Of a stretch of 64,000 bases of DNA, positions 19,557 through 58,440 are shown piece by piece. Within the stretch, counting starts at the first letter, position 1. Every line of letters starts with the position of its first letter. Location: assembly GCF_001677475.2 (NCBI RefSeq), contig NZ_CP015229.1; one strand, 5' to 3'. The stretch comes from Escherichia coli (GTDB lineage: Bacteria; Pseudomonadota; Gammaproteobacteria; Enterobacterales; Enterobacteriaceae). The position numbers and the translations under genes are program-made. The notes under the pieces were generated by a model. It did no database searches. It was not told where the DNA came from and worked only from the letters and a program-made list of their open reading frames with translations.

Positions 19557-20264
19557 ATGAATACCCAACGAAAATACGGGAGAACCTGGCATTACCCTTT
19601 CTCCCCAGGCACCACCAGCGATGACCGTATTAACACCGATTACTGGCAGGATTTACAGGCCATCACGCAATTGGTGCACACAGAAAAACTCGACGGTGAA
19701 AATAACTGCCTTAACCGCTACGGCGTGTTTGCCCGTTCCCATGCCGCGCCTACGCAGTCGGCATGGACCTATAAAATTCGCCAACGCTGGCAACTGCTGA
19801 AAAACGATCTCGGCGATCTGGAGTTGTTTGGTGAAAATCTTTATGCCGTCCATTCGATTGAATATCGCGCCCTGGAGCAGGATTTTTATCTGTTTGCCGT
19901 TCGCTGCCAGGATATGTGGCTGAGCTGGGAAGAGGTGCAGTTTTACGCCGCTCTGTTTGATTTCCCCTGCGTTCCCGAAATCTCCGGCCCGCAGCCGGGG
20001 AATGATGAAAAAAGCTGGCAACGTGATTTTCTGGCGCTGACCAATGCGCGCGGCGCGTTCGATCCCTGGGATACGCAAACCGGGCAACCCTGTACGCTGG
20101 AAGGCATTGTCAGCCGAAATCGTGACGCGTTTTCCGTCGCTGACTTTTCGCATAACGTCTTCAAGTATGTGCGCAAAAATCATGTCAAAACCACCGTGCA
20201 CTGGAAACGACACTGGCAACGGGCGCGGATGGCCCATGAGTTCGCTTATGGAGAACAGTCATGA
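19557..20264 (+). CDS. Minimal ATP-dependent polynucleotide ligase (lysine nucleotidyltransferase family, RNA-ligase-like)
   Basis: 235-aa ORF; motif I K44-L-D-G47, motif III-like F91-G-E-N, motif IV E182-G-I-V, motif V K203-Y-V-R-K207 in canonical order. Confidence 0.7.
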
Positions 20265-21373
20265 TTTGGCAGCTTACCGACGACAAACGCTGGTCGACGC
20301 TACGCCAGCGTTTCAGTTGGGTTGAGGAGATGCATCACACGCCACAAGACCCGGAGCATCATGGTGAAGGTGACGTCGGCGTGCATACGGAAATGGTGCT
20401 TAACGCCCTCGTTACTCAGCCAGAATTCCAGCAACTCCCCGCTCAACAGCAGGAAGTTTTATGGGCGGCGGCGTTATTGCATGATGTTGAAAAGCGCAGC
20501 ACTACCGTGCAGGAAAACGGACGTATTCAGTCTCCAGGCCATGCTCGTCGGGGCGAACTGACGGCCCGACAAATTTTATGGCGCGATATCCCAACGCCGT
20601 TCGTGCTACGCGAGCAAATTGTTGCGCTGGTGCGTCTGCATGGGTTACCGCTATGGTTACTGGAACGTCCGGAACCGGAGCGTTTGCTGCTCACGGCTGC
20701 AATGCGCATCGACACGCGTCTGCTCGCTTTGCTTGCTCGTGCCGACCTGCTTGGTCGCCAAAGCCCGGATCAGCAATCAATGCTGGAACGCATCGATCTG
20801 TTCGAGCTGTTTTGCCATGAGCAACAATGCTGGGGAAAAGTGCGCCCGTTCGTTTCTGATTCCGCACGCTGGCACTACCTGACTCATGAGCAAAGTTCTC
20901 CTGATTTTGTTCCCTGGGGGGCTGAACCTTTTGAGGTTATTTTGCTGTGTGGCTTACCGGGTATGGGCAAAGATCGCTATATCAGTGAACAGTGCCAGGG
21001 AATGGACGTTATCAGCCTTGATGATATGCGGCGGCGAATCAATGCCAGCCCGGACGACAAAACCGCCACCGGGCGTATTGTGCAACAGGCAAAAGAAGAG
21101 GCGCGCGTTTTTTTACGCCAGAAAAAGCCGTTCATCTGGAATGCAACGAACATTACCCGCCAGCTGCGTAGCCAGCTCATCAGCTTGTTTACGGCCTACG
21201 GTGCAAGGGTAAAAATTATCTATCTGGAAGTGCCGTGGGCACAATGGAAGCAGCAAAATGCCAGGCGTGTGTATGCAGTTCCTGAAGTGGTCGTAATGCG
21301 GATGGCCTCAAGGCTGGAAGTTCCTCAACCTGATGAAGCACATAGCGTGGAGTATCGGGTGATTGAAAGGTAA
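20261..21373 (+). CDS. HD-domain phosphoesterase fused to a T4-Pnk-like 5'-OH polynucleotide kinase (HD-Pnk end-healing enzyme)
   Basis: 370-aa ORF; N-terminal HD signature ([11 protein letters not shown] ... LLHDVEK); C-terminal P-loop GLPGMGKD then [24 protein letters not shown] and [16 protein letters not shown], matching T4 Pnk as recalled; start overlaps the ligase stop (ATGA). Confidence 0.7.
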
Positions 21374-21379
21374 AAAAAC

Positions 21380-21416
21380 CGGGCGGTGCTGTCACCTGCC
21401 CGGCTTCTTTTGTTCC
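21380..21416. terminator. Probable bidirectional terminator between the HD-Pnk gene and convergent luxS
   Basis: A-run, ccgggcgg...cctgcccgg imperfect hairpin, then cttcttttgtt, in the 48-bp gap between two convergent stops. Confidence 0.5.
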
Positions 21417-21421
21417 ACTGA

Positions 21422-21937
21422 CTAAATGTGCAGTTCTTGCAACTTCTCTTTCGGCAGCGCCAGCTCTTCGTTGCTGTTGATGCGTACGTCACGTTCCAGA
21501 ATGCTACGCGCAATATCCTGCGCTTCCTGCAACGAGTGCATCTGGTAAGTGCCACACTGGTAGACGTTCAGTTCTGGGATCTGATTCTGATCCTGCACTT
21601 TCAGCACGTCTTCCATTGCCGCTTTCCAGGCATCAGCAACACGCTGCTCATCTGGCGTACCAATCAGACTCATATAAAAACCGGTGCGGCAGCCCATTGG
21701 CGAGATATCGATAATCTCTACACCATTACCGTTAAGATGGTTACGCATAAAACCAGCAAACAGGTGCTCCAGGGTATGGATCCCTCTTTCTGGCATCACT
21801 TCTTTGTTCGGCACGCAGAAGCGCAGATCGAACACGGTGATTGCGTCGCCATGCGGGGTGTTCATTGTTTTCGCCACCCGAACTGCAGGCGCTTCCATCC
21901 GGGTATGATCGACTGTGAAGCTATCTAACAACGGCAT
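21422..21937 (-). CDS. luxS: S-ribosylhomocysteine lyase LuxS
   Basis: 171-aa ORF; recognised LuxS sequence incl. metal-binding HTLEHL. Confidence 0.93.
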
Positions 21938-22005
21938 TTAGCCACCTCCGGTAATTTTTTTAAAAATTTTCTGAACTCTTTCTTCCCAGGCGAGTCTGAG
22001 TATAT

Positions 22006-22079
22006 GAAAGACGCGCATTTGTTATCATCATCCCTGAATTCAGAGATGAAATTTTGGCCACTCACGAGTGGCCTTTTTC
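22006..22079 (+). ncRNA. micA: MicA (SraD) small regulatory RNA
   Basis: Recognised sequence gaaagacgcgcatttgttatcatcatccctgaattcagagatgaaattttggccactcacgagtggcctttttc with terminal hairpin; between luxS and gshA on the opposite strand. Confidence 0.75.
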
Positions 22080-22086
22080 TTTTCTG

Positions 22087-23670
<1,584 letters not shown>

Positions 23671-23715
23671 TTAATTAGCATAACTGTAATGGTGACCATA
23701 TGTGCAGGCCTACAA

Positions 23716-24144
23716 TTAGTGCCACCACATCATGCCCTGAACGGTCGCTGCTGCAACTGCAACATAGCGTAACGCTTTACCAAGGCACAAAAAAAAGATT
23801 ACCGGCCCCCAGGAGATGCGCATCCATCCCGCTAACAGACACAGTAAATCGCCAACTACGGGCATCCAGCTTAATAATAGCGTGACTGCACCATAGCGTT
23901 TCAGCCAGCCAGTAGCTTTCTCTTGCCAGCGCGATGTTTTACGCAATGGAAAGAAACGCCCAAGGATAACGTTAGTTAACCCTCCAAGGCTATTACCCAT
24001 TGTTGCTGTTAAAACTAAAACCCAGGGATGACTGATCCCGGAAAGCAACATTGCCACCAGCACGACTTCGGAGTTGCCGGGTAATAGTGTAGCGCTGAGA
24101 AAACTACTGGCAAACAACGAGAAAAGCGATAACGCTTCACTCAC
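23716..24144 (-). CDS. yqaA: DedA/SNARE-associated family inner-membrane protein YqaA
   Basis: 142-aa hydrophobic ORF; synteny. Confidence 0.85.
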   Translation of the reverse strand: MSEALSLFSLFASSFLSATLLPGNSEVVLVAMLLSGISHPWVLVLTATMGNSLGGLTNVILGRFFPLRKTSRWQEKATGWLKRYGAVTLLLSWMPVVGDLLCLLAGWMRISWGPVIFFLCLGKALRYVAVAAATVQGMMWWH

Positions 24145-24707
24145 AGCAAGCGAACATCCACAGCGTCCATGCCTGCTGCGCGGGCCGCCTGAATACCGAA
24201 ATCGGCATCTTCAAAGACCACACACTGTGTCGGTTGCACGCCCATACGCTGCGCGCACAACAAAAATGTGTCTGGCGCGGGTTTATGGTGTTTGACGTGA
24301 TCGGCAGCGACGACGGCGTCAAAATAACGGCGTAATCCCAGGTGCGCCAGCAATGCCTCAGCGATGGCGCTTTCACTCCCCGTTCCTACAGCCATTGGGC
24401 GACGACCATGCCAACTTTTCACCACTTCAACAAGAGGAAGCGGCTCGACACTATCCAGCAGCATACTTCTTACTGCTTCTGTTTTTTCACGCGCTAACGC
24501 ATGCGGGTCGAGATCGGCCTGATTCAGCTCAATAATCGCCTGAGCAATACGCCAGGTGGGCGAGCCATTAAGCGCAATCATTGCCTGAACATCGTACTGA
24601 AGACCGTAGTGCCCTAATACTTCGCGCCACGCTTTACGGTGCGTAGGCTCCGTATCCAGGATTGTGCCATCCATATCAAAAATTAAACCTGCATAACGCT
24701 CGTACAT
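24141..24707 (-). CDS. yqaB: HAD-superfamily sugar phosphatase YqaB
   Basis: 188-aa ORF; HAD motif I FDMDGTILDTE. Confidence 0.88.
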   Translation of the reverse strand: MYERYAGLIFDMDGTILDTEPTHRKAWREVLGHYGLQYDVQAMIALNGSPTWRIAQAIIELNQADLDPHALAREKTEAVRSMLLDSVEPLPLVEVVKSWHGRRPMAVGTGSESAIAEALLAHLGLRRYFDAVVAADHVKHHKPAPDTFLLCAQRMGVQPTQCVVFEDADFGIQAARAAGMDAVDVRLL

Positions 24708-24917
24708 GGTCTTCTCGCAAGTCGAAAAATATGACGCTACTTTAGCGTAATTGCTTGATTTTGTCGCTGATGGCGAAGGAGAAGAAAATTCAGGAAATAG
24801 ATAAAGTAGTTATTTAGAAATGAGATATTTTTGAAGGAAATTTGTGGGAGAAGATGGTGCCTGCGGTTAGTACTGCTACCTCTTCGATACCTTCATTGCT
24901 GAAGATTACGGAGAATA

Positions 24918-24994
24918 TGGTGCATCCGGGAGGATTCGAACCTCCGACCGCTCGGTTCGTAGCCGAGTACTCTATCCAGCTGAGCTACGGATGC
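24918..24994 (-). tRNA. argQ: tRNA-Arg (ACG), copy 1
   Basis: Reverse complement gives a 77-nt tRNA ending in CCA with recognised tRNA-Arg sequence; symbol assigned by position. Confidence 0.9.
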
Positions 24995-25096
24995 ATCGGG
25001 AAAACTTATTTTACTGCTGATATTGATACCGCTACTAAAGCCATATCAAATAAGAAAATCCATCTTAACCATCATCACTGATGATTACGGAGAATA

Positions 25097-25173
25097 TGGT
25101 GCATCCGGGAGGATTCGAACCTCCGACCGCTCGGTTCGTAGCCGAGTACTCTATCCAGCTGAGCTACGGATGC
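25097..25173 (-). tRNA. argZ: tRNA-Arg (ACG), copy 2
   Basis: Identical 77-nt repeat. Confidence 0.9.
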
Positions 25174-25235
25174 ATCGGGAAATTTATTTTACTGCTGATA
25201 TTGATACCGCTACTAAAGCCATATCAAGTAAGAGA

Positions 25236-25312
25236 TGGTGCATCCGGGAGGATTCGAACCTCCGACCGCTCGGTTCGTAGCCGAGTACTCTATCCAGCTG
25301 AGCTACGGATGC
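25236..25312 (-). tRNA. argY: tRNA-Arg (ACG), copy 3
   Basis: Identical 77-nt repeat. Confidence 0.9.
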
Positions 25313-25374
25313 ATCGGGAAACTTACTTTACTGCAGATTTTTTGATACCGCTACTAAAGCCGTATCAAGTAAGA

Positions 25375-25395
25375 GATGGTGCATCCGGGAGGATT
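25375..25395 (-). pseudogene. Truncated tRNA-Arg fragment (3'-terminal ~21 nt only)
   Basis: gatggtgcatccgggaggatt matches the 3' end of the tRNA-Arg repeat, then diverges into spacer-like sequence. Confidence 0.6.
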
Positions 25396-25511
25396 ACTCG
25401 CCTTGCGGCTCGCCCTTCGGGCCGTTGCTAAAGCAACGTTATCCTTCCTGGTGCTTGCGGCTAGTACCGCCACCTCTTCCACATCTTCATCGCTGAAGAT
25501 TACGGATAATA

Positions 25512-25588
25512 TGGTGCATCCGGGAGGATTCGAACCTCCGACCGCTCGGTTCGTAGCCGAGTACTCTATCCAGCTGAGCTACGGATGC
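25512..25588 (-). tRNA. argV: tRNA-Arg (ACG), copy 4
   Basis: Identical 77-nt repeat. Confidence 0.9.
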
Positions 25589-25591
25589 AAA

Positions 25592-25684
25592 TGGCGGTGA
25601 GGCGGGGATTCGAACCCCGGATGCAGCTTTTGACCGCATACTCCCTTAGCAGGGGAGCGCCTTCAGCCTCTCGGCCACCTCACC
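25592..25684 (-). tRNA. serV: tRNA-Ser (GCU)
   Basis: 93-nt long-variable-arm tRNA; reverse complement matches the tRNA-Ser(GCU) sequence as recalled. Confidence 0.88.
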
Positions 25685-25998
25685 ACACGCCTCTTACGAG
25701 TGCTTCGAAGAACTTGTTTATCGCTCATCGTCGCTGCGTGGCGCACATATTACTTTCTGAGACTTATAAGTCAAACAATTTTTCCCACACTTTTATCGTT
25801 TGCACACTTCACGCTCAATTAGTCTGTAAAAACGTCAAAAAGAGTGTTTTATCAACAGAAAAACGGAGGTCTGTCAGATAGCAGTAATGCAAAAAAATGG
25901 AGACTTAAGTTGAATGAACGGGAGTAAAGCGAAAAGACAATGGAGTGAAGAAGAAATTTGAGGGTGCGTCTCACCGATAAAGATGAGACGCGGAAAGA

Positions 25999-26184
25999 TT
26001 AGTAACTGGACTGCTGGGATTTTTCAGCCTGGATACGCTGGTAGATCTCTTCACGGTGAACAGAAACTTCCTTCGGGGCATTTACGCCAATACGTACCTG
26101 GTTGCCCTTTACCCCTAAAACTGTCACGGTGACCTCATCCCCAATCATGAGGGTCTCACCAACTCGACGAGTCAGAATCAGCAT
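25999..26184 (-). CDS. csrA: Carbon storage regulator CsrA
   Basis: 61-aa [64 protein letters not shown] recognised in full. Confidence 0.97.
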
Positions 26185-26418
26185 TCTTTGCTCCTTGAAA
26201 GATTAAAAGAGTCGGGTCTCTCTGTATCCCGGCATTATCCATCATATAACGCCAAAAAGTAAGCAATGACAAACACATTACATGTAAGCAGTCATGGCAT
26301 TACATTCTGTTAAACCTAAGTTTAGCCGATATACACAACTTCAACCTGACTTTATCGTTGTCGATAGCGTTAATGCGAATGCCGTGAAGCGAGTCCACGG
26401 CATTGCCTGACGCTTATA

Positions 26419-29049
26419 TTATTGCAATTTCGCGCTGACCCAGCCTTTCACACTGGCTAACGCTGCAGGTAAGGCCGCAGCATCCGTACCACCGGCTTGC
26501 GCCATGTCAGGACGTCCACCACCCTTGCCGCCCACCTGCTGAGCGACCACACCAATCAGTTCCCCTGCTTTCACACGATCTGTGACGTCCTTAGATACGC
26601 CTGCAATCAGAGAAACCTTACCTTCGACTACCGTTGCCAGCACGATAATTGTCGACCCCAGCTGATTTTTTAAATCGTCAACCATGGTACGCAACATTTT
26701 CGGCTCAACACCGCTAAGCTCGCTAACCAACAGCTTAACACCATTAACATCAATTGCCTTACTGGAAAGATTTGCGCTCTCCTGTGCGGCAGCTTGTTCT
26801 TTAAGCTGTTGTAACTCTTTTTCCAGCTGACGCGTACGTTCCAGTACTGAGCGCACTTTATCAGCCAGATTATTGCTATCGCCTTTCAGCAGATGCGCGA
26901 CTTCGCTTAAGCGATCGCTGTCTGCATGAACGGTCGCGATAGCGCCTTCTCCGGTTACCGCTTCGATACGACGAACGCCTGCAGCAGTACCCGATTCAGA
27001 GATGATGCGGAACAGACCAATATCACCAGTGCGACTGGCGTGAGTACCGCCACACAGCTCGGTGGAGAAATCGCCCATGCTCAGCACGCGTACGCGCTCA
27101 TCATACTTCTCACCAAACAGCGCCATCGCACCTTTCGCTTTCGCCGCTTCGAGATCCATGATGTTGGTTTCGATCGGCAAGTTACGGCGAATCTGTGCGT
27201 TCACCAGGTCTTCGACCGCACGAATCTCTTCTGGTTTCATCGCTTCGTTGTGTGAGAAGTCGAAGCGCAGCACTTTGTCGTTAACCAGTGAACCTTTCTG
27301 CGATACATGAGTACCCAGAACCTGGCGCAGCGCAGCGTGCATCAGGTGCGTTGCGGAGTGATTCAGACGAATACGGGCGCGAAGAGCCTCATCAACATCA
27401 GCCTGCACCGCGTCGCCCACTTTCAGAGAACCCGCAGCAAGTTTACCGATGTGACCAATCGCCTGGCCGTATTTCTGCGTATCTTCCACCGCAAAGGAGA
27501 AGTTAGCGCCTTTCAGTTCGCCTTTATCACCAACCTGACCGCCGGATTCCGCATAGAATGGCGTTTGATCCAGCACGACCACAGCTTCCTGGCCTGCATT
27601 GATGGCATCAACCGCTTTACCATCAACAAACAGCGCGGTCACTTTGCCGTTCAGTTCCAGATGGTCATAGCCTTTAAATTCAGATGCGCTGTCAACACGG
27701 ATCATTGCGTTGTAATCGGCACCAAAGCCGCTGGCTTCGCGCGCGCGACGACGCTGCTCTTCCATTGCTGCTTCGAAACCAGCTTCGTCAACTTTGATGT
27801 TGCGCTCACGACAAACATCAGCCGTCAGGTCAACCGGGAAGCCATAGGTGTCGTACAGACGGAAAGCCGTTTCACCATCCAGCGTATCACCAGAAAGTTT
27901 TGCCAGCTCTTCATCCAGCAGCGCCAGACCGCGCTCCAGAGTACGGGCAAACTGCTCTTCTTCAGTCTTCAGCACCTGCTCAACCTGCGCCTGCTGGCGT
28001 TTCAGGTCTTCACCCGCAGAGCCCATTACGTCGATCAGCGGACCAACCAGTTTGTAGAAGAAGGTTTCTTTCGCGCCCAGCATATTGCCGTGACGCACTG
28101 CGCGACGAATGATACGACGCAGTACATAACCACGGTTTTCATTGGACGGCATTACGCCATCCGCGATCAGGAACGCACAAGAACGAATGTGGTCAGCGAT
28201 TACGCGCAGCGATTTATTGCTCAGATCGGTCGCGCCAGTGACTTTCGCTACCGCCTGGATCAGCGTGCGGAACAGGTCGATGTCATAGTTAGAGTTAACG
28301 TGTTGCAGCACCGCAGCAATACGCTCCAGACCCATACCGGTATCTACAGACGGCTTCGGCAGCGGTTCCATCGTGCCATCTGCCTGGCGGTTGAACTGCA
28401 TGAAGACGATGTTCCAGATCTCAATGTAGCGATCGCCGTCTTCTTCCGGACTTCCCGGAGGGCCACCCCAAATGTGGTCGCCGTGATCGTAGAAGATTTC
28501 GGTGCACGGGCCGCACGGACCAGTGTCACCCATCTGCCAGAAGTTGTCAGATGCGTATGGCGCACCTTTGTTATCGCCGATGCGAATAATACGTTCGCGC
28601 GGGATCCCTACTTCTTTTTCCCAGATTTCGTAGGCTTCGTCGTCGCTTTCATAGACGGTAACCCACAGACGCTCTTTCGGCAGGGCAAACCATTTTTCAC
28701 TGGTCAGCAGTTCCCATGCAAACTGAATGGCATCGTGTTTGAAATAGTCGCCGAAGCTGAAGTTGCCCAGCATTTCGAAGAAGGTATGGTGACGCGCGGT
28801 GTAACCGACGTTTTCCAGGTCGTTGTGTTTACCACCCGCACGCACGCAGCGTTGGGAAGTGGTAGCGCGGGAATAATTACGCTTGTCGAGCCCAAGGAAC
28901 ACATCCTTGAACTGGTTCATCCCGGCGTTGGTAAACAACAAAGTTGGGTCGTTATGGGGTACCAGGGAGCTGCTGGCAACTACCTGATGTCCCTTACTAT
29001 GGAAAAAGTCGAGAAACGCCTGACGGATCTCAGCGGTGCTCTTGCTCAT
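26419..29049 (-). CDS. alaS: Alanine--tRNA ligase AlaS
   Basis: 876-aa ORF; recognised N-terminus [24 protein letters not shown]. Confidence 0.95.
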
Positions 29050-29176
29050 AATTATCCTGAAATCAAGCTAACGAAATATCGCCACCAGCTCCAGCGTGTC
29101 TTAACCGCCGGGCTGGTAACTGAAAAGTGGGAATAAGATAAGTTTTCTTGACTGGGAAGTAAAATACCGTATGCGT

Positions 29177-29677
29177 TCAGTCGGCAAAATTTCGCCAAAT
29201 ATCCTGGATATCTTCCATCAGATAGCCACGATAGAGCAGAAAACGCTGGATCTTAACTTTTTCTGAAAAGACAGTTGGCAAAGGTTCACCATATTTTCGC
29301 GTCGCCTGATCGCGCGCCAGTGCGCACCAGTCGATGTCACATTCACGCATCGCTTTTTCTGTCGCTTCGCGGGAAATACCTTTCTGATTCAGTTCCTGAC
29401 GAATACGCGCAGGTCCATAACCTTTGCGGCTACGGCTGGCGATAAAGCGCGCAACAAATCGGCTGTCATCAAGATAGCCATGTTCATGGCACCAGGCAAT
29501 AACGCGCTCGTAATCTTCTGCCGTGGCATCAATCTCTTCCGGGCCATTTTTGCCCATAATCGGTGCCGCGAGTTTACGTCGCAGTTCTTGCTCACTGTGA
29601 TCGCGCACCGCCAGAATGCGTACCGCACGATCCAACAGGCGAGCATATGCCGGGCGACGGGACGTTGATTCTGTCAT
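29177..29677 (-). CDS. recX: RecA inhibitor RecX
   Basis: 166-aa ORF downstream of recA on the same strand; recognised RecX sequence. Confidence 0.9.
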
Positions 29678-29837
29678 GGCATATCCTTACAACTTAAAAA
29701 AGCAAAAGGGTCGCAGATGCGACCCAGGTTTTGCTGATAAACAGATTTAATAGTCAATGAGTGTGCAGAATGTTCCCGCAGGCCCAATTCGTTAGAAGAT
29801 CGAGGTGAGAGTAATTTTTCACGCCAGTGCTGACCTG

Positions 29838-29879
29838 TTCCCCTCACCCTCACCCTCTCCCCAAAGGGGCGAGGGGACC
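29838..29879. repeat. GC-rich imperfect palindromic element in the recA-recX spacer
   Basis: ttcccctcaccctcaccctctccccaaaggggcgaggggacc. Confidence 0.5.
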
Positions 29880-29919
29880 GTCCGTGCACACATTATCTAT
29901 TATCATCAATAACGAACGA

Positions 29920-31060
<1,141 letters not shown>

Positions 31061-31558
31061 TCAAGTGTTTTGTAGAAATTGTTGCCACAAGGTCTGCAAT
31101 GCATACGCAGTAGCCCGACGACGCACCGCATCACGGTCACCGCTGAAGCATTCCCGCCGGATAATGCCTTCACCGCGGGCAGTGGCAAAAGCAAACCAGA
31201 CGGTGCCGACAGGCTTCTCTTCACTGCCGCCATCCGGCCCGGCGATACCACTAATAGACACGGCATAATCAGCACGAGCCGCTTTCAGTGCGCCTATCGC
31301 CATTTCCACCACGACGGGTTCGCTCACCGCGCCATGCTGCGCCAGCGTCTCTTCGCGTACGCCGATCATTTGCGCTTTCGCTTCGTTACTGTAGGTGACA
31401 AATCCGCGTTCAAACCAGGCGGAACTGCCGGCAATATCGGTAATCACTTTCGCTACCCAACCACCGGTACAAGACTCAGCAGTTGTTACGGTTGCGCCAC
31501 GGGCTTTCAGCGCCTGCCCAACCTGTTCGCTTAACTGCATCAGTTCACTGTCAGTCAT
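31061..31558 (-). CDS. pncC: NMN amidohydrolase PncC (YgaD)
   Basis: CinA-C-domain-like ORF (31061..31561 in the track) directly upstream of recA. Confidence 0.85.
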   Translation of the reverse strand: MTDSELMQLSEQVGQALKARGATVTTAESCTGGWVAKVITDIAGSSAWFERGFVTYSNEAKAQMIGVREETLAQHGAVSEPVVVEMAIGALKAARADYAVSISGIAGPDGGSEEKPVGTVWFAFATARGEGIIRRECFSGDRDAVRRRATAYALQTLWQQFLQNT

Positions 31559-31702
31559 CACAACCTCTGTCAGTCAAAAATTTATGCCGGACAAGATAGC
31601 ACTTTCGTCAGGAAGATGGTGTTGGCGTTGCAATTTTACGAGGAGGATTCAGAAAAAAGCTGATTAGCCAGAGGGAAGCTCACGCCCCCCTCTTGCAAAT
31701 AG

Positions 31703-32788
31703 TTACTGCACGCGCGCCAGCGCCACGGCTTGTCCTAACTGCCAGACCGCCATTGCGTAATGGGTGCTGTGGTTATAACGGGTAATGGTGTAGAAGTTCG
31801 GCAGACCGTACCAGTACTGGTAACCTGTTCCAACATCCAGACGCAGCAGGCTGGCTTGTTGATGGTTGCCTAGCGGCTGCTGTGGCGTTAAACCTGCCGC
31901 GGCAAGCTGCGAAATGCTGTACTTGGTTTTGAAGCCATTTGGCAAGCCTGGAGCCTGACCGTTTGCCATTACCGCGACCTGATCGCCTTTCACCCAGCCG
32001 TGCGCTTTGAAATAATTCGCCACGCTACCGATCGCATCAACCGGATCCCACAGGTTGATATGCCCGTCGCCGCTGAAATCTACCGCATATTGTTTGTAAG
32101 ACGACGGCATAAACTGTCCGTAGCCCATCGCCCCGGCAAAGGAACCTTTCAGATTGAGCGGATCGTCCTGCTCGTCACGCGCCATCAGCAGGAAGGTTTC
32201 CAGCTCGCCAGAGAAATACTCCGCGCGGCGTGGGTAGTTAAATGACAGCGTTGCCAGCGCATCGAGGATGCGAGTTTTCCCCATCACGCGCCCCCAGCGG
32301 GTTTCAACGCCGATAATCCCGACGATAATTTCCGGCGGTACGCCATACACCTGCCACGCGCGATTCAACGCATCTTCATACTGATTCCAGAAAACCACAC
32401 CGTTCTGCACGTTGTCCGGCGTAATAAATTTTTTGCGATAACGCAGCCATGCGCCGTTCGGACCTGATGGCGGTTTCACCGATGTGGTTGGTGCCTGGTT
32501 ATCCATCAGCCGCAGTACCGAATCCAGACGTTTCGCCTGGGAGAGAATTTCCTGCAACTGCTGACGATCGAAACCGTGTTTGTTCACCATTTTGTCGATG
32601 AACTGCTGGGCATTCGGGTTATTGGCGAAGTCACCGCCCATCTGCATCACATTGTGCTGCGGCTCAAGCAGGAAGCCGCCAGACGGCGTTCCGGTGGTCG
32701 TATCAGTCTCAGTAGGTTTTGGCTTGCTGCTACAGGCGGCAAGCAACACAAAAAGGGGAAGCAATGTTACATAACGACGCTTGAACAT
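31703..32788 (-). CDS. mltB: Membrane-bound lytic murein transglycosylase B
   Basis: ORF 31703..32893; recognised lipoprotein start MFKRRYVTLLPLFVLLAACSS at internal Met. Confidence 0.88.
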   Translation of the reverse strand: MFKRRYVTLLPLFVLLAACSSKPKPTETDTTTGTPSGGFLLEPQHNVMQMGGDFANNPNAQQFIDKMVNKHGFDRQQLQEILSQAKRLDSVLRLMDNQAPTTSVKPPSGPNGAWLRYRKKFITPDNVQNGVVFWNQYEDALNRAWQVYGVPPEIIVGIIGVETRWGRVMGKTRILDALATLSFNYPRRAEYFSGELETFLLMARDEQDDPLNLKGSFAGAMGYGQFMPSSYKQYAVDFSGDGHINLWDPVDAIGSVANYFKAHGWVKGDQVAVMANGQAPGLPNGFKTKYSISQLAAAGLTPQQPLGNHQQASLLRLDVGTGYQYWYGLPNFYTITRYNHSTHYAMAVWQLGQAVALARVQ

Positions 32789-36259: not shown

Positions 36260-37033
36260 ATGAAACCTCGTCAGCGTCAGGCCGCCATTCTGGAGTATCT
36301 GCAAAAGCAGGGTAAATGCTCGGTTGAAGAATTGGCGCAATACTTTGACACCACAGGCACAACCATTCGCAAAGATCTGGTCATTCTGGAACATGCCGGA
36401 ACCGTCATTCGTACTTATGGCGGAGTGGTGTTGAATAAAGAGGAATCCGATCCGCCTATCGATCATAAAACGCTCATCAACACCCACAAGAAAGAGCTGA
36501 TTGCAGAAGCTGCCGTTAGTTTTATTCATGATGGCGACTCAATAATTCTTGATGCTGGCAGTACCGTTTTGCAGATGGTCCCCCTGCTCTCGCGCTTTAA
36601 TAACATCACAGTGATGACCAACAGCCTGCATATCATCAATGCGCTATCCGAACTGGATAATGAACAAACTATCCTGATGCCAGGCGGAACGTTTCGTAAA
36701 AAATCGGCCTCATTTCACGGGCAGCTGGCAGAGAATGCCTTCGAACATTTCACCTTCGACAAATTGTTTATGGGCACCGACGGCATCGATCTCAATGCGG
36801 GCGTAACCACGTTCAACGAGGTTTATACCGTCAGTAAGGCAATGTGCAATGCCGCGCGCGAAGTGATTTTGATGGCGGACTCATCAAAGTTTGGCCGTAA
36901 AAGCCCCAACGTAGTTTGCAGTCTTGAAAGCGTCGATAAGCTAATTACCGACGCAGGTATCGATCCGGCGTTTCATCAGGCGCTGGAAAAGAAAGGGATC
37001 GATGTGATCATAACCGGAGAGAGCAATGAGTGA
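36260..37033 (+). CDS. srlR: DeoR-family glucitol operon repressor SrlR
   Basis: 257-aa ORF; DeoR-type N-terminal HTH. Confidence 0.88.
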
Positions 37034-37991
37034 AGCACTACTGAACGCGGGACGTCAGACGTTAATACTGGAGTTGCAGGAAGCAAGCCGTTTACCGGAA
37101 CGTCTGGGCGATGATTTTGTTCGCGCCGCCAATATCATCCTGCACTGCGAAGGCAAAGTGGTGGTTTCGGGAATTGGCAAATCGGGCCACATTGGTAAGA
37201 AAATCGCCGCAACGCTTGCCAGTACCGGCACACCGGCTTTTTTTGTCCATCCCGCAGAAGCACTGCACGGCGATCTGGGGATGATTGAAAGCCGCGATGT
37301 GATGCTGTTTATCTCTTACTCCGGTGGTGCGAAGGAACTGGATCTGATTATTCCGCGTCTGGAAGACAAATCTATCGCGCTGCTGGCGATGACCGGCAAA
37401 CCGACGTCACCGCTGGGCCTGGCGGCAAAAGCGGTGCTGGATATCTCCGTAGAACGCGAAGCCTGTCCGATGCACCTTGCGCCGACCTCCAGCACCGTCA
37501 ATACCCTGATGATGGGTGACGCGCTGGCGATGGCGGTCATGCAGGCACGCGGATTTAATGAAGAAGATTTTGCCCGCTCCCACCCAGCTGGGGCACTGGG
37601 CGCTCGCTTGCTGAATAAAGTGCATCATCTGATGCGCCGTGATGACGCTATCCCACAGGTAGCATTAACCGCTAGCGTGATGGACGCGATGCTGGAACTC
37701 AGCCGCACCGGTTTAGGTCTGGTGGCAGTGTGCGATGATCAACGACTGGTGAAAGGCGTCTTTACTGACGGCGATTTACGTCGCTGGCTGGTTGGCGGCG
37801 GCGCACTCACCACGCCAGTTAATGAAGCGATGACGACAGGCGGCACCACATTACAGGCGCAAAGTCGCGCCATCGACGCTAAAGAGATCCTGATGAAGCG
37901 CAAAATCACTGCCGCACCGGTGGTGGATGAAAACGGCAAACTCACCGGCGCAATTAACCTGCAGGATTTCTATCAGGCCGGGATTATTTAA
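37026..37991 (+). CDS. gutQ: Arabinose-5-phosphate isomerase GutQ (SIS + CBS domains)
   Basis: 321-aa ORF overlapping the srlR stop. Confidence 0.88.
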
Positions 37992-39502
37992 TCCTTCAAT
38001 CCCAGACGTTTCGCCAGCCGATGCAGGTTGGCGACGTCGGTTTCCAGCATCCGCGCGCAGGCGGCCCAGTTGTGATGATTTTGTGCCAGTGCCTGGCGAA
38101 TAGTTTCACGCTGGAACGCTTCTGTCGCTTCACGCAGATTTTGCTTAATAACGGGCACCGCCGCCGCTTCTGGCGTCGGCAACGTCACCTCAGGAAAAGC
38201 AAAATGTTGCGCCTCAAGAATCACTTCATCGCCGCTGCGGGTGGCTCTCGACAGTACTACCGCCCGATGAATAGCATGTTCCAGTTCACGCACGTTTCCC
38301 GGAAAACTGTAGTGTTGCAGTAAATTTCGCGCTCCGGAACTTAACACTACGCGGGAGAGCCCCAGCCGCAAACGGCACTGCTCACAGAAATACCCCGCCA
38401 GAAGAGTGACGTCATCGCCCCGCTCACGCAGCGGCGGCACCGAAAGCGGAAACACGCTCAGGCGATGGAACAAATCGGCGCGGAATCGCCCTGCCAGCAC
38501 CTCTTCACGCAAGTCGCGGTTAGTCGCCGCCAGCACGCGCACATCGACCCGCAAACTGCGGTCATCGCCAACGCGCTGAATATCGCCATACTGCAACACC
38601 CGCAGCAGCTTGGCCTGCAATGCCAACGACAACTCGCCGATCTCATCGAGAAACAGCGTGCCGTTATCCGCCATTTCAAACTTCCCGCTGCGGTTACTGA
38701 TAGCGCCAGTAAACGCTCCTTTCACATGCCCGAACAATTCACTTTCCGCCACACTTTCCGGCAGTGCGGCACAGTTGAGATAGACCAGCGGATTCACCGC
38801 CCGTGGCGAGGCTTCATGAATCGCTTTCGCCACCAGCTCCTTACCGGTTCCCGTCTCACCGCTGATTAAGACGTTGAGATCGGACGCCGCCACAATCTCA
38901 ATCTCTTTTTTTAATTGCGTCATACCTGGCGACAGACCGATCATCTGCGTCTGTTTCACCGCTTCAAACGGCGCGGCATCGCCCGGCAGCATATTCTGGC
39001 TTTCCAGTTGCTCAATCAGCAACGCATTGCTTAACGCTCCCGCCGCCAGCGCGGCAATCAGGCGTAACTCTTCGTCGCTGAAAACATCGAACTGATCGGG
39101 CTGCATCCCGTCGAGCGTCAGTGCGCCGATCAGGTTTTGCCCGGCAAACAACGGCAGACCAACGCAGGCGTGAACCTTCAGTCTCTCCTGCCCGGGAATC
39201 AAACCGTCATAGGGATCGGGCAATTCGCTGTCTGCGGGAAAGCGCACCACGTCCCCAGCGCGGGCAATCGCTTCCAGCCGAGGATGCCCTTCCAGCGCAA
39301 AGCGTCTACCGAGTACATCCTTCGCCAGCCCGTCGATGGCAAGCGGAATAAACTGCCGCGAGTCGTAACGTAGCAACGCAGACGCATCGCACTCCAGCAC
39401 CTGACGCAGCGTGGTGATCAGGCGCTGAAAACGATCCTGATGACCAATCCCACGCTGCAATTCGATGGCGATATTCGCCAGCACATCAACGGAAAAACTC
39501 AT
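37988..39502 (-). CDS. norR: Sigma54-dependent NO-responsive activator NorR
   Basis: 504-aa ORF; AAA+ sigma54-activator domain with GETGTGKE and GAFTGA motifs; C-terminal HTH. Confidence 0.92.
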
Positions 39503-39514
39503 CTTTGCCTCACT

Positions 39515-39570
39515 GTCAATTTGACTATTGATATTGTCATATTGACCATTTTATTGATAGTCATTTTGAC
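39515..39570. promoter_or_regulatory. Three NorR binding sites (GT-N7-AC) in the norR-norV intergenic region
   Basis: gtcaatttgac (39515-25), gtcatattgac (39536-46), gtcattttgac (39560-70). Confidence 0.8.
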
Positions 39571-39625
39571 TACTCACTAATGAGCATAAATTAATTTATA
39601 CATTAAAAACAATCAGATAAAAAAC

Positions 39626-39642
39626 TGGCACGCAATCTGCAA
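39626..39642 (+). promoter_or_regulatory. Sigma54 (-24/-12) promoter of norVW
   Basis: tggcacgcaatctgca fits the TGGCAC-N5-TTGC class, about 45 bp upstream of the norV start. Confidence 0.75.
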
Positions 39643-39688
39643 TTAACAAGACATCTTTTTAGAACACGCTGAATAAATTGAGGTTGCT

Positions 39689-41128
39689 ATGTCTATTGTG
39701 GTGAAAAATAACATTCATTGGGTGGGTCAACGTGACTGGGAAGTACGTGATTTTCACGGCACGGAATATAAAACGCTGCGCGGCAGCAGCTACAACAGCT
39801 ACCTCATCCGCGAAGAAAAAAACGTGCTGATCGACACCGTCGACCATAAATTCAGCCGCGAATTTGTGCAGAACCTGCGTAATGAAATCGATCTGGCGGA
39901 TATCGATTACATCGTGATTAACCATGCAGAAGAGGACCACGCCGGGGCGCTGACTGAACTGATGGCGCAAATTCCCGATACGCCGATCTACTGTACAGCC
40001 AACGCTATCGACTCGATAAATGGTCATCACCATCATCCGGAGTGGAATTTTAATGTGGTGAAAACTGGCGACACGCTGGATATCGGCAACGGCAAACAGC
40101 TCATTTTTGTCGAAACACCAATGCTGCACTGGCCGGACAGCATGATGACTTACCTGACAGGCGACGCGGTGCTGTTCAGTAACGATGCTTTCGGTCAGCA
40201 CTACTGCGACGAGCATCTGTTCAACGATGAAGTGGATCAGACCGAGCTTTTCGAGCAGTGCCAGCGTTACTACGCCAATATCCTGACGCCGTTCAGCCGC
40301 CTGGTAACGCCGAAAATTACCGAGATCCTGGGCTTTAACTTGCCAGTCGATATGATAGCGACCTCTCACGGCGTGGTATGGCGCGATAACCCGACGCAAA
40401 TTGTCGAGCTGTACCTGAAATGGGCGGCGGATTATCAGGAAGACAGAATCACCATTTTCTACGACACCATGTCGAATAATACCCGCATGATGGCTGACGC
40501 TATCGCCCAGGGGATCGCGGAAACCGACCCGCGCGTAGCGGTGAAAATTTTCAACGTCGCCCGAAGCGATAAAAACGAAATCCTGACCAATGTCTTCCGC
40601 TCAAAAGGCGTGCTGGTCGGCACTTCGACGATGAATAACGTGATGATGCCGAAAATCGCCGGGCTGGTGGAGGAGATGACCGGATTGCGCTTTCGTAATA
40701 AACGCGCCAGTGCTTTCGGCTCTCACGGCTGGAGCGGCGGTGCGGTGGATCGTCTTTCCACTCGCCTGCAGGATGCAGGTTTCGAAATGTCGCTTAGCCT
40801 GAAAGCCAAATGGCGACCGGATCAGGACGCTCTGGAGTTATGCCGTGAACACGGTCGTGAAATTGCCCGTCAATGGGCGCTTTCGCCGCTGCCGCAGAAC
40901 ACGGTGAATACGGTGGTTAAAGAAGAAACCTGTGCCACCACGACGGCTGACCTCGGCCCACGGATGCAATGCAGCGTCTGCCAGTGGATTTACGATCCGG
41001 CAAAAGGCGAGCCAATGCAGGACGTTGCGCCAGGAACGCCGTGGAGTGAAGTCCCGGATAACTTCCTGTGCCCGGAATGTTCACTCGGCAAAGACGTCTT
41101 TGACGAACTGGCATCGGAGGCAAAATGA
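39689..41128 (+). CDS. norV: Anaerobic NO reductase flavorubredoxin NorV
   Basis: 479-aa ORF; C-terminal rubredoxin CxxC pairs. Confidence 0.92.
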
Positions 41129-42258
41129 GCAACGGCATTGTGATCATTGGTTCGGGCTTCGCCGCCCGCCAACTGGTGAAAAATATTCGCAAACAGGACG
41201 CCAGTATTCCATTAACCCTGATTGCCGCCGACAGCATGGATGAGTACAACAAACCTGACCTCAGCCATGTGATCAGTCAGGGGCAACGTGCCGACGACCT
41301 TACCCGCCAGACGGCAGGTGAATTTGCCGAGCAGTTTAATCTGCGCCTGTTTCCGCACACCTGGGTGACGGATATCGATGCCGAAGCCCATGTGGTGAAA
41401 AGTCAGAATAATCAGTGGCAATACGACAAGTTAGTGCTGGCAACCGGTGCCAGCGCCTTTGTCCCGCCAGTGCCCGGGCGTGAGTTAATGCTGACGTTAA
41501 ATAGTCAGCAAGAGTATCGCGCCTGTGAAACGCAACTGCGGGATGCCCGACGCGTGTTGATTGTCGGCGGTGGTTTGATTGGTAGCGAACTGGCGATGGA
41601 TTTTTGTCGTGCAGGCAAAGCGGTCACGCTAATCGACAACGCTGCCAGTATTCTGGCATCGTTAATGCCACCGGAAGTAAGCAGCCGCTTGCAGCATCGG
41701 TTGACGGAGATGGGCGTTCATCTGCTGTTGAAATCTCAGTTGCAGGGGCTGGAAAAAACGGATTCTGGCATTCGGGCAACGCTGGATCGCCAACGCAGCA
41801 TCGAAGTGGACGCGGTAATTGCCACAACCGGACTGCGCCCGGAAACCGCCCTGGCACGACGCGCCGGGCTGACGATTAATCGCGGCGTTTGCGTCGATAG
41901 TTATCTGCAAACCAGTAATGCCGATATTTATGCGCTGGGCGATTGCGCAGAAATTAACGGTCAGGTACTGCCGTTCCTCCAGCCGATTCAACTTAGCGCG
42001 ATGGTGCTGGCAAAAAATCTTCTCGGCAATAACACGCCGCTGAAACTACCGGCGATGCTGGTGAAAATCAAAACGCCGGAATTACCGCTGCATCTGGCAG
42101 GCGAAACCCAGCGTCAGGATTTACGCTGGCAGATTAATACCGAACGCCAGGGAATGGTGGCGCGCGGCGTTGACGATGCTGACCAGCTTCGCGCCTTTGT
42201 GGTCAGTGAGGATCGGATGAAAGAGGCATTTGGATTGTTGAAAACGTTGCCGATGTAG
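41125..42258 (+). CDS. norW: NADH:flavorubredoxin reductase NorW
   Basis: 377-aa ORF; FAD motif GSGFAARQ and second dinucleotide fold GGGLIGSE. Confidence 0.9.
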
Positions 42259-42279
42259 GCGGGCTACTGTACCTAAAAT

Positions 42280-42366
<87 letters not shown>

Positions 42367-42386
42367 GTGTCCAAATGCAGCACGTT

Positions 42387-44639
42387 TTATCCGTTCTGGA
42401 CTTCCCCTGCCAACCAACGCGCCGCAGCAATAACCCCCTGCCCCAGAGACAAACCGCCATCACCTGCCGGTAAACTCTGTGGAAAGAGCAATGTGAAATC
42501 AGCGAGATAATGCGCCAGACGTGCACGCAGCAAACGGTTATGAATAACCCCGCCGCTAAATACCAGCGTAGTGATACCGTGCATCGTGGCCTGCTCACGC
42601 ATCAATGCGGCAAAACCCTGCGCCAGCGTATCATGAAACGCCCACGCGCGTTGATTAACCGGTGCCTGCCAGTTCAGCCACTGCTGCCAGAAGGTGGCGA
42701 GATCCAGTTGATTGTCCACCAGCGGCATCGTCACCGGATGCGTCACTCCGTGGCACGAAGCTGCGAGCGCCTCCAGAGCACAAGCCGCTTCACCTTCATA
42801 ACTTAACGTGGCTGGCGCACAACCCAGTGCCGCCGCCACAGCATCGAACAAACGCCCACACGATGACGCCAGCGGCGCGTTAATTCCACGCTCAATGGCC
42901 CGCGCCAGCACGCTCCAGTTTTGCTGTTGCACACTTGCCGTTTCAGGGTAATTCTGCCACTGCGGCACAAAGCGCAGGCACTGCGCCAGCAGGTTACGCC
43001 ACGGCTGCTTTGCAGCCAAATCGCCCCCCGGAAGCGCCACCGCAGGCAAGCCGCCCAGGTGCTCACATTCGCGATAGTTCACCCGCAGGCACTCGCCGCC
43101 CCACAAAGCGCCGTTCTCCCCCATACCGATACCGTCGAGCGTCAACGCAATGACATCACCGCCATCCAGCGGCCAGTGATGTTCTGCCAGACACGCCGCT
43201 GCGTGGGCATGATGATGAAGCACCGTTTGCGTCGGCAGATTCATTTCGCTCGCCCACTGGCTGGAGACATAGCCCGGATGCACGTCATGCACAACGTATT
43301 GCGGGGTAAAATCGTAGATGTTTTGCATCAGGCGTAACGCTTCGCGCCACTGCATCTGGATGCCATCGTCACTTAAATCGCCCAGATGCTGACTCAACAC
43401 CGCTTGCTCACCGCGCACCAGGCAGAAGGTATTTTTCAGATCCGCGCCGAGACACAGCACAGGCGGAACATTTTTAAAGCCCGGAGGCAAAGCCAGCGCA
43501 TCCGGCACATACCCCCGCGAACGGCGCAGCATTTCGCCGCTTTCGCGCACCACCGAATCATCCATCCGCTGCACGATGTCGCGGTTATGTATCAAGAATC
43601 CGTCGGCAATGCCCTGCAAATCCGCCAGCGCCTGTTCGTTGCTGATAGCTGGTGGTTTACCGCTCAGGTTGCCGGAGGTCATCACCAGCGGGCATTGCAG
43701 TTCCTGTAACAGCAAATGCTGGAGCGGGTTCGCAGGCAACATTACCCCGACTTCGTTAAGGCCAGGGGCGATATCATCACAAAGCTCAGGTACATATTTT
43801 TTATCCACCAGCACAATCGGCGCGGCGGGCGTGGTAAGCAACTGGCGCGCAGCGTCTGGTAAACCGTCAGCCACTGGCAACATGACCGCCAGCGGTTTCG
43901 CCGGGCGATGTTTGCGCGCCCGAAGTGTCGCCACCGCGTTACTGTTACGTGCATCGCAGGCAAGATGAAATCCGCCAATCCCTTTGATGGCGACAATGTT
44001 GCCCATTTTTAACTGTGCGATAGCTGCCTGTAATGCCGCCTCTTGTTCCGCATGTTCATCATGACTTACCCATTCAAGATGGGGGCCACACTCCGGGCAG
44101 GCCACCGGCTGGGCGTGGAAGCGACGATCGAGCGGGTCACAGTACTCTTTGTCACAAGCCGGACACAGCGGAAACGCCGCCATCACGGTAAACGGGCGAT
44201 CGTAAGGCATGGCGCGAATAATGGTGAAACGCGGGCCACAGTGGGTACAGTTGATAAACGGATAACGCCAGCGTCGTTCGCCTGGGGTATTCATTTCGGC
44301 AAGGCAAGCAGGGCAAGTCGCGGCATCGGGAACAATTTGCGTATTCATGACGCCACCCGCGCTCTGGCGGATGGTGAACTCAGTGGGCAGTTGTGACCAG
44401 ATAAACGGCTCACGCTCGACGCTATCAATACGCGCCAGTGGCGGGCAGTGCTGATGCAATTGAACAAGAAACGCTTCCGGATCTTCCAGCAGCCGGACTT
44501 CTACGCCATCGCCGTCATTACAGACATCGCCGTGAAGATTTAATTGCTGTGCCAGTTGCCAGACAAACGGACGAAAACCGACGCCCTGCACTTTGCCACG
44601 AATACGCAGTTGGACACCGCAAGATGTGTTTTTTGCCAT
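42387..44639 (-). CDS. hypF: Carbamoyltransferase HypF (hydrogenase maturation)
   Basis: ORF 42387..44711; recognised start [24 protein letters not shown]; two zinc-finger CxxC pairs. Confidence 0.92.
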
Positions 44640-57797: not shown

Positions 57798-58259
57798 TCA
57801 TGCTGCCGGGCTTTGTCCCTTTACCAGTTGGCTTAAATTCACCGGCACATTGTTTTCAATGGCGGTATATAAGCTGTCGTAAACGCCAGCGATTTTTTCG
57901 AGATAGTGTTCCAGAACCTGTTCGCGATCGCGGATGTTGACCTTGCCATCAATCATGCCGTCAATGCTCAGTTGCGCCTGCGCAATCCGCTGTTTGTCTT
58001 CGCCATCTTTTGTTTCGACGTAATACTCGATGGTGTGGCTGTTAAAGCCATCCGCCAGGGTGACGTAAATGCGAAAATGTTCAAAAAGGACGAAACAGAG
58101 TTCTTTGTCCGGCGCGCAGCTCATGGCGTGATGCAGGCGCGCTTTCGATAACGTGATCCCCTGAACCAGCGAATTGCAGTAGATGTGCCACTGGTCCTGT
58201 AGGCGACGATGCCGCTGTGCGATGTAATCGGCTTTCTCGCTTATTTCCCAAATAGTCAT
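57798..58259 (-). CDS. hycA: Formate hydrogenlyase regulatory protein HycA
   Basis: 153-aa ORF; first gene of the hyc operon, divergent from hypA. Confidence 0.9.
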   Translation of the reverse strand: MTIWEISEKADYIAQRHRRLQDQWHIYCNSLVQGITLSKARLHHAMSCAPDKELCFVLFEHFRIYVTLADGFNSHTIEYYVETKDGEDKQRIAQAQLSIDGMIDGKVNIRDREQVLEHYLEKIAGVYDSLYTAIENNVPVNLSQLVKGQSPAA

Positions 58260-58296
58260 TGTCAGGTTACCCGTTTAACAGAGATGCCAGTTTTAA

Positions 58297-58311
58297 GCAT
58301 TTTCTGTGCCA
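58297..58311 (-). promoter_or_regulatory. Candidate sigma54 promoter of the hyc operon
   Basis: Minus strand reads tggcacagaaaatgc (GG/GC elements with standard spacing), about 40 bp upstream of hycA. Confidence 0.5.
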
Positions 58312-58424
58312 ACTTTTAATTTATTGTTATTAAAGCGATTTTTAAGCTAAAGATGAATTTCGTCGCCGTGTCGACGTGTCATTTCGACATCATCGACATT
58401 ATTCACCGCAGGGATAATCAACAC

Positions 58425-58440
58425 TGGCACAATTATTGCT
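58425..58440 (+). promoter_or_regulatory. Candidate sigma54 promoter of the hyp operon
   Basis: tggcacaattattgct fits TGGCAC-N5-TTGC, about 30 bp upstream of hypA. Confidence 0.6.

Follow-up and report, generated by a model that had tools for sequence, protein, structure and literature searches.

The 186 bp between the divergent genes norR and norV in the Escherichia coli DNA analysed here (one stretch of 64,000 nucleotides, hereafter the window) are almost certainly the NO-responsive control region of norVW, built in the same way as in E. coli K-12. The cis elements of this control region, the IHF site being a putative one, and the regulator NorR itself are all present, intact and under purifying selection. 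The binding of NorR to its sites, the requirement for all three of them, the binding of IHF and the mechanism connecting NO with the ATPase are taken from K-12 and, by analogy, would be expected to hold in the window as well. The region is thus a clean instance of already described biology, as a previous reading of the sequence alone had anticipated when it spoke of known biology, and it matches the one studied in K-12 by Tucker et al. (2010).

The spacer between both genes runs exactly from 39503 to 39688, with the norR start codon on the complementary strand at 39500-39502 and the norV start codon at 39689, and the surrounding gene order, gutQ-norR/norVW-hypF, is that of K-12. The elements of the system are the following:

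37988-39502, minus strand: norR, the NO-sensing enhancer-binding protein of sigma-54, 504 aa, matching the NCBIfam equivalog model NF003451 with 824 bits (cut-off 476).
39515-39525, no strand: NorR site 3, GTCAATTTGAC, next to norR, centred at about -132, 22.7 bits, the same in K-12.
39536-39546, no strand: NorR site 2, GTCATATTGAC, in the middle, centred at about -111, 22.6 bits; the K-12 version is GTCATATCGAC.
39560-39570, no strand: NorR site 1, GTCATTTTGAC, proximal to the promoter, centred at about -87, 22.0 bits.
39607-39619, plus strand: putative IHF-like element, AAACAATCAGATA, aligned with a perfect WATCAANNNNTTR (AATCAATAAATTA) contained in the consensus of other genera.
39626-39641, plus strand: sigma-54 promoter, TGGCAC-GCAAT-CTGCA, TGGCACGCAATCTGCA (tggcacgcaatctgca), the same in K-12.
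39652-39688, plus strand: norV leader, with a putative transcription start (+1) at about 39652 and a Shine-Dalgarno GAGG at 39680-39683 that is at least 90% conserved.
39689-41128, plus strand: norV, the flavorubredoxin NO reductase, 479 aa, matching the NCBIfam equivalog model NF003954 with 1046 bits, above the curated cut-off.
41125-42258, plus strand: norW, the NADH reductase of NorV, 377 aa, matching NCBIfam NF003437 with 685 bits, above the curated cut-off.

The target genes encode an NO-detoxifying enzyme system, with the norV and norW frames both intact and matching their equivalog models. Their cognate activator is encoded nearby and shows the expected architecture of a GAF domain with a non-haem iron site, an AAA+ domain with the GAFTGA loop and a C-terminal HTH; the Pfam models recovered in the protein are GAF, Sigma54_activat and AAA_lid_14. 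NorR is identical to its K-12 counterpart in 495 of 504 residues, with no change in the final 52, where the HTH lies. Besides the GAFTGA loop, the protein keeps R75, D96, D99, C113 and D131, the five residues proposed as ligands of the iron (PMC4601167). The gene rpoN lies outside the 64-kb window.

The three NorR sites are all inverted repeats of the form GTCA-N3-TGAC, with start-to-start spacings of 21 and 24 bp. The sequence-only reading had described three evenly spaced repeats between norR and norV; their positions were exact, while the spacing is even only approximately. The pattern GTCANNNTGAC has eight matches in the window against 0.88 expected, a number reached in none of 100 shuffles, and a triple GT-N7-AC array with such spacing occurs once in the 64 kb (0.16 expected) and is therefore unique in the window. 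Moreover, a NorR matrix of 17 columns, built from 267 sites of non-Escherichia genomes only, gives the three sites, read on both strands, as its top six matches in the window (20.5-22.7 bits), with the next one at 13.0 bits. The enrichment of GTCANNNTGAC, the lone triple array and the top matrix scores together exclude chance as the origin of the NorR sites, and the motif scan that had been suggested as a check, with both NorR and sigma-54 matrices, ranked the sites and the promoter first.

These repeats can be placed directly on the work done in K-12. The published numbering starts at the promoter, so that site 1 corresponds to 39560-39570, and the mutagenic primers of that study carry GTCATTTTGAC for site 1, GTCATATCGAC for site 2 and GTCAATTTGAC for site 3, in a one-to-one correspondence with the repeats of the window (PMC2831303). 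In E. coli K-12, Tucker et al. (2010) replaced GT-N7-AC by GG-N7-CC in each of the sites, and the disruption of any single NorR site abolished the induction of a norV-lacZ fusion (PMC2831303). The DMS footprint in K-12, given in the same source, covers G residues between -137 and -84, counted from the norV start. If +1 is set at 39652, the base at -137 is G39515, with which the array opens, and the one at -84 is G39568, the last plus-strand G of the array, and this comparison with published footprints agrees with the assignment of the sites. Genomic SELEX in K-12 found the norR/norVW spacer as the sole NorR target (PMC8249747), with which the lone array in the window agrees.

The conservation of the array was followed in loci chosen without reference to the sites, through a back-translated peptide of NorV (WVGQRDWE) and with one genome per species, which gave at least 120 loci. 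Among the 116 listed loci that have 260 nt or more of upstream sequence, 91 carry a triple GT-N7-AC array, against 0.03 in mononucleotide shuffles. The spacings in these 91 listed loci are 21+24 (43 loci), 20+25 (22), 19+25 (11), 20+24 (11) and 19+24 (4), which means that the span of the array is held to 43-45 bp among them. Among the matches listed, the proximal site and TGGCAC are 53-55 bp apart in 30 loci, 64-67 bp in 57 and 75 bp in one. The two main classes differ by one helical turn, with the window in the 66-bp class, and their discreteness, together with the fixed span of the array, implies a strict face-of-helix geometry.

A distance of 13 bp separates the array from the norR start codon, and this proximity leads us to propose an autoregulation of norR, in which bound NorR probably also dampens norR transcription. 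From the same position, which has to be inside the norR promoter or downstream of it, one could argue that the palindromes are chiefly operators for the repression of norR, or for another regulator, and not a sigma-54 enhancer. The annotation of K-12 NorR as a “dual regulator”, the statement that NorR regulates norR as well as norVW (PMC8249747) and the autoregulatory NorR sites proposed in Vibrio (Rodionov et al.) would all be in line with such a role. We consider this reading highly improbable, however, as each K-12 site is needed for the activation of norV (PMC2831303), which makes an operator role additional to the enhancer and no replacement for it. Moreover, the distance to the -24 element falls in one of two fixed classes across the listed genera, and a fixed distance between array and promoter is what an enhancer working with that promoter predicts, and not a norR operator alone. 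A sigma-70 promoter scan was uninformative, with no match for norR on the minus strand and a single one on the plus strand (39534-39561) against 1.1 expected.

The pattern of conservation, base by base, also fits the sigma-54 enhancer. When the window and K-12 are aligned by MAFFT with 40 further enterobacterial spacers of the 21+24 type (42 in total, with a mean identity of 67%), the invariant positions are GTC and TGAC in the first site (39515-39525), GTC and AC in the second (39536-39546) and GTCA and GAC in the third (39560-39570). The N3 cores and the stretches between sites are variable. Invariant half-sites around variable cores are the pattern expected when a protein contacts the half-sites. 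The remaining invariant columns are TGGCA, the -12 G, three positions in the A/T-rich, IHF-like block and one base of each start codon.

There is a fourth GTCA-N3-TGAC copy, GTCAACGTGAC, at 39726-39736, inside norV (about +75), which we considered as a NorR site and rejected. It arises from the norV codons GGT CAA CGT GAC, the wobble bases of which vary freely: across at least 120 genomes, the Gly wobble T is kept in 36, and the whole GT-N7-AC core in 17 of the 120 listed, which is why this copy is judged coincidental. To the notion that the three repeats are likewise chance palindromes, or else RNA hairpins or a leader RNA element, with no protein bound to them, we give practically no weight: short palindromes are indeed frequent in DNA as A/T-rich as this spacer, and the copy within norV could be cited in its favour, but the numbers of matches and the unique array exceed expectation, the half-sites are invariant around variable cores and spacers in the 42 genomes, any hairpin would have a stem of just 4 bp, and the non-conserved intragenic copy is precisely what a chance copy looks like. 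A search of the spacer against Rfam returned no family at E<=1.

The promoter that such an enhancer would serve had been called a near-consensus sigma-54 element, and the description holds: TGGCACGCAATCTGCA at 39626-39641 agrees with the pattern at 10 of its 11 specified positions, with GG at 39627-39628 (-25/-24) and GC at 39639-39640 (-13/-12). When one mismatch is allowed, the consensus shows no enrichment in the window (four found against 3.75 expected), and the assignment rests on the context, the identity with the K-12 promoter and its conservation, and not on the frequency of the pattern. A matrix of norV promoters from 84 genomes of other genera scores 39624-39643 with 26.4 bits, and the runner-up in the window with 16.6. 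The enhancer-plus-promoter arrangement proposed for the response to NO was likewise borne out, both by the protein models matched by NorR, NorV and NorW and by the coincidence of the repeats with the sites mutated in K-12.

The -12 half of this promoter varies between genera. In 26 of 117 listed norV upstream regions the -12 element is TTGAT, with G-A in place of the canonical G-C, and in four it has TGT. These regions (from Enterobacter, Lelliottia, Pluralibacter, Morganella and others) retain TGGCAC and the three NorR sites. CTGCA is kept in the window, E. coli and Citrobacter. A sigma-54 pattern of the type GG-N10-GC misses many genera, since they have TTGAT at this position. A non-canonical -12 dinucleotide throughout a lineage, at a sigma-54 promoter that is tightly silent, may merit attention.

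The other three matches to the sigma-54 consensus at one mismatch fall in or beside another spacer of the window, defined by the following genes:

57798-58259, minus strand: hycA.
From 58459, plus strand: hypA.

Two of these matches are divergent and lie in the hycA/hypA spacer, at 58296-58311 (minus strand) and 58425-58440 (plus strand, a perfect TGGCACAATTATTGCT), and the third is intragenic, within hycA, at 58175-58190. The best match of the NorR matrix away from norV, GTGTCATTTCGACAT at 58375-58391 with 13 bits, is found between the two hycA/hypA promoters, presumably within the upstream-activating region of FhlA.

Between the enhancer and the promoter of norV there is an A/T-rich stretch (39571-39625), which contains the putative IHF element at 39607-39619. 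This region, a part of the known system, was absent from the sequence-only reading. The binding of IHF between enhancer and promoter is reported for K-12 (PMC2831303; PMC4601167, Fig. 4). In the alignment of 42 spacers, the IHF-like block shows no variation at A39611, T39618 and A39622, and a conservation of 90% or more at C39610 and A39612. The copy of the window is a weak one, with two mismatches to the IHF consensus, and a scan at two mismatches, with 486 matches against 481 expected, is uninformative, so that the site is placed by homology only. Its exact position should consequently be taken as a prediction from the aligned sequences.

For the start of norV transcription we infer a position close to 39652, that is, 12 nt past the C of the -12 element (C39640), with which the limits of the footprint fit. 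The first part of the leader, 39652-39672 (CATCTTTTTAGAACACGCTG), is fairly conserved across enterobacterial genera, with the consensus CATCTTTTT..AAAACGCTG, and this conservation exceeds what would be expected for a plain leader of 37 nt.

Put together, these elements suggest how the region may work. Three NorR dimers would occupy the three GT-N7-AC repeats and form a hexameric AAA+ ring, poised but inactive, while the sigma-54 RNA polymerase would wait as a closed complex on the -24/-12 element at 39626-39641. A bend introduced by IHF in the intervening A/T-rich DNA would bring the NorR ring to the polymerase. The arrival of NO at the ferrous iron held by NorR's GAF domain would then lift the repression of the AAA+ domain, and the hydrolysis of ATP would turn the closed complex into an open one, with the transcription of norVW from about 39652. 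The model of a hexamer assembled on DNA and de-repressed by NO has been published (PMC2831303, PMC4601167) and has the best support of the accounts considered.

The significance of the present instance is one of annotation only: it is a complete and apparently functional NorR-NorVW module of defence against NO, with its cis elements intact, and it advances no open question. Modules of this kind help enteric bacteria to survive host-derived and endogenous NO at low oxygen, and the norV promoter (PnorV) has been widely reused as an NO biosensor.

Compared with known systems, the closest one is naturally that of K-12. The norR-norVW region of K-12 has the same 186 bp, aligned without gaps and at 98% identity. 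Its sites 1 and 3, sigma-54 element, leader and Shine-Dalgarno sequence are those of the window, and so are the spacings of 21 and 24 bp between sites and of 66 bp to TGGCAC. The differences amount to 11 substitutions in the spacer; the A/T-rich IHF region holds six of them (39577-39603), and another, at 39646, is found after the -12 element and before +1. The sole change inside a NorR site is T39543 (C in K-12), which turns site 2 into a perfect GTCA-N3-TGAC and leaves its GT-N7-AC core untouched. In other genera this T predominates, and E. coli C5 has it as well; for that reason we regard it as a natural polymorphism. There is an outside chance that T39543 and the six changes of the IHF region could shift the NO threshold or the level of norVW induction with respect to K-12. 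A search of 5424 complete E. coli genomes gave no identical copy of the 73-nt enhancer haplotype; the nearest one has two mismatches.

More broadly, the identity of the window with E. coli K-12 is 96.5%, as tested on 20000-32000 and 36713-42714, and with E. albertii and “E. coli” SCPM-O-B-8794 it is about 94%. When compared with any of 5426 complete E. coli genomes, positions 20000-32000 reach at most 98.3% over the full 12 kb, and the norRVW region at most 97.4%. The values for K-12 and for norRVW point to a somewhat divergent Escherichia as the source.

Beyond Escherichia, NorR-controlled promoters of other proteobacteria also have three tandem GT-N7-AC sites before a -24/-12 promoter, usually with norR adjacent and divergent, as here (Rodionov et al. 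2005). The targets of NorR are norVW in Salmonella, Erwinia and Vibrio, hmp in V. cholerae and Pseudomonas, and norAB in Ralstonia (Rodionov et al. 2005). Other lineages differ from the window in the spacing of their sites (20+25 or 19+25) and in a promoter that is one helical turn nearer (53-55 bp), some of them also in a -12 element with TTGAT, and some in having hmp or norB as targets. With enhancers of the NtrC or TyrR type, the system shares the nucleation of a hexameric AAA+ activator by dimers at tandem sites and the IHF-assisted looping to the sigma-54 polymerase (PMC2831303). Unlike them, NorR absolutely needs all three sites, and it is controlled after its assembly on DNA and not by oligomerisation (PMC2831303).
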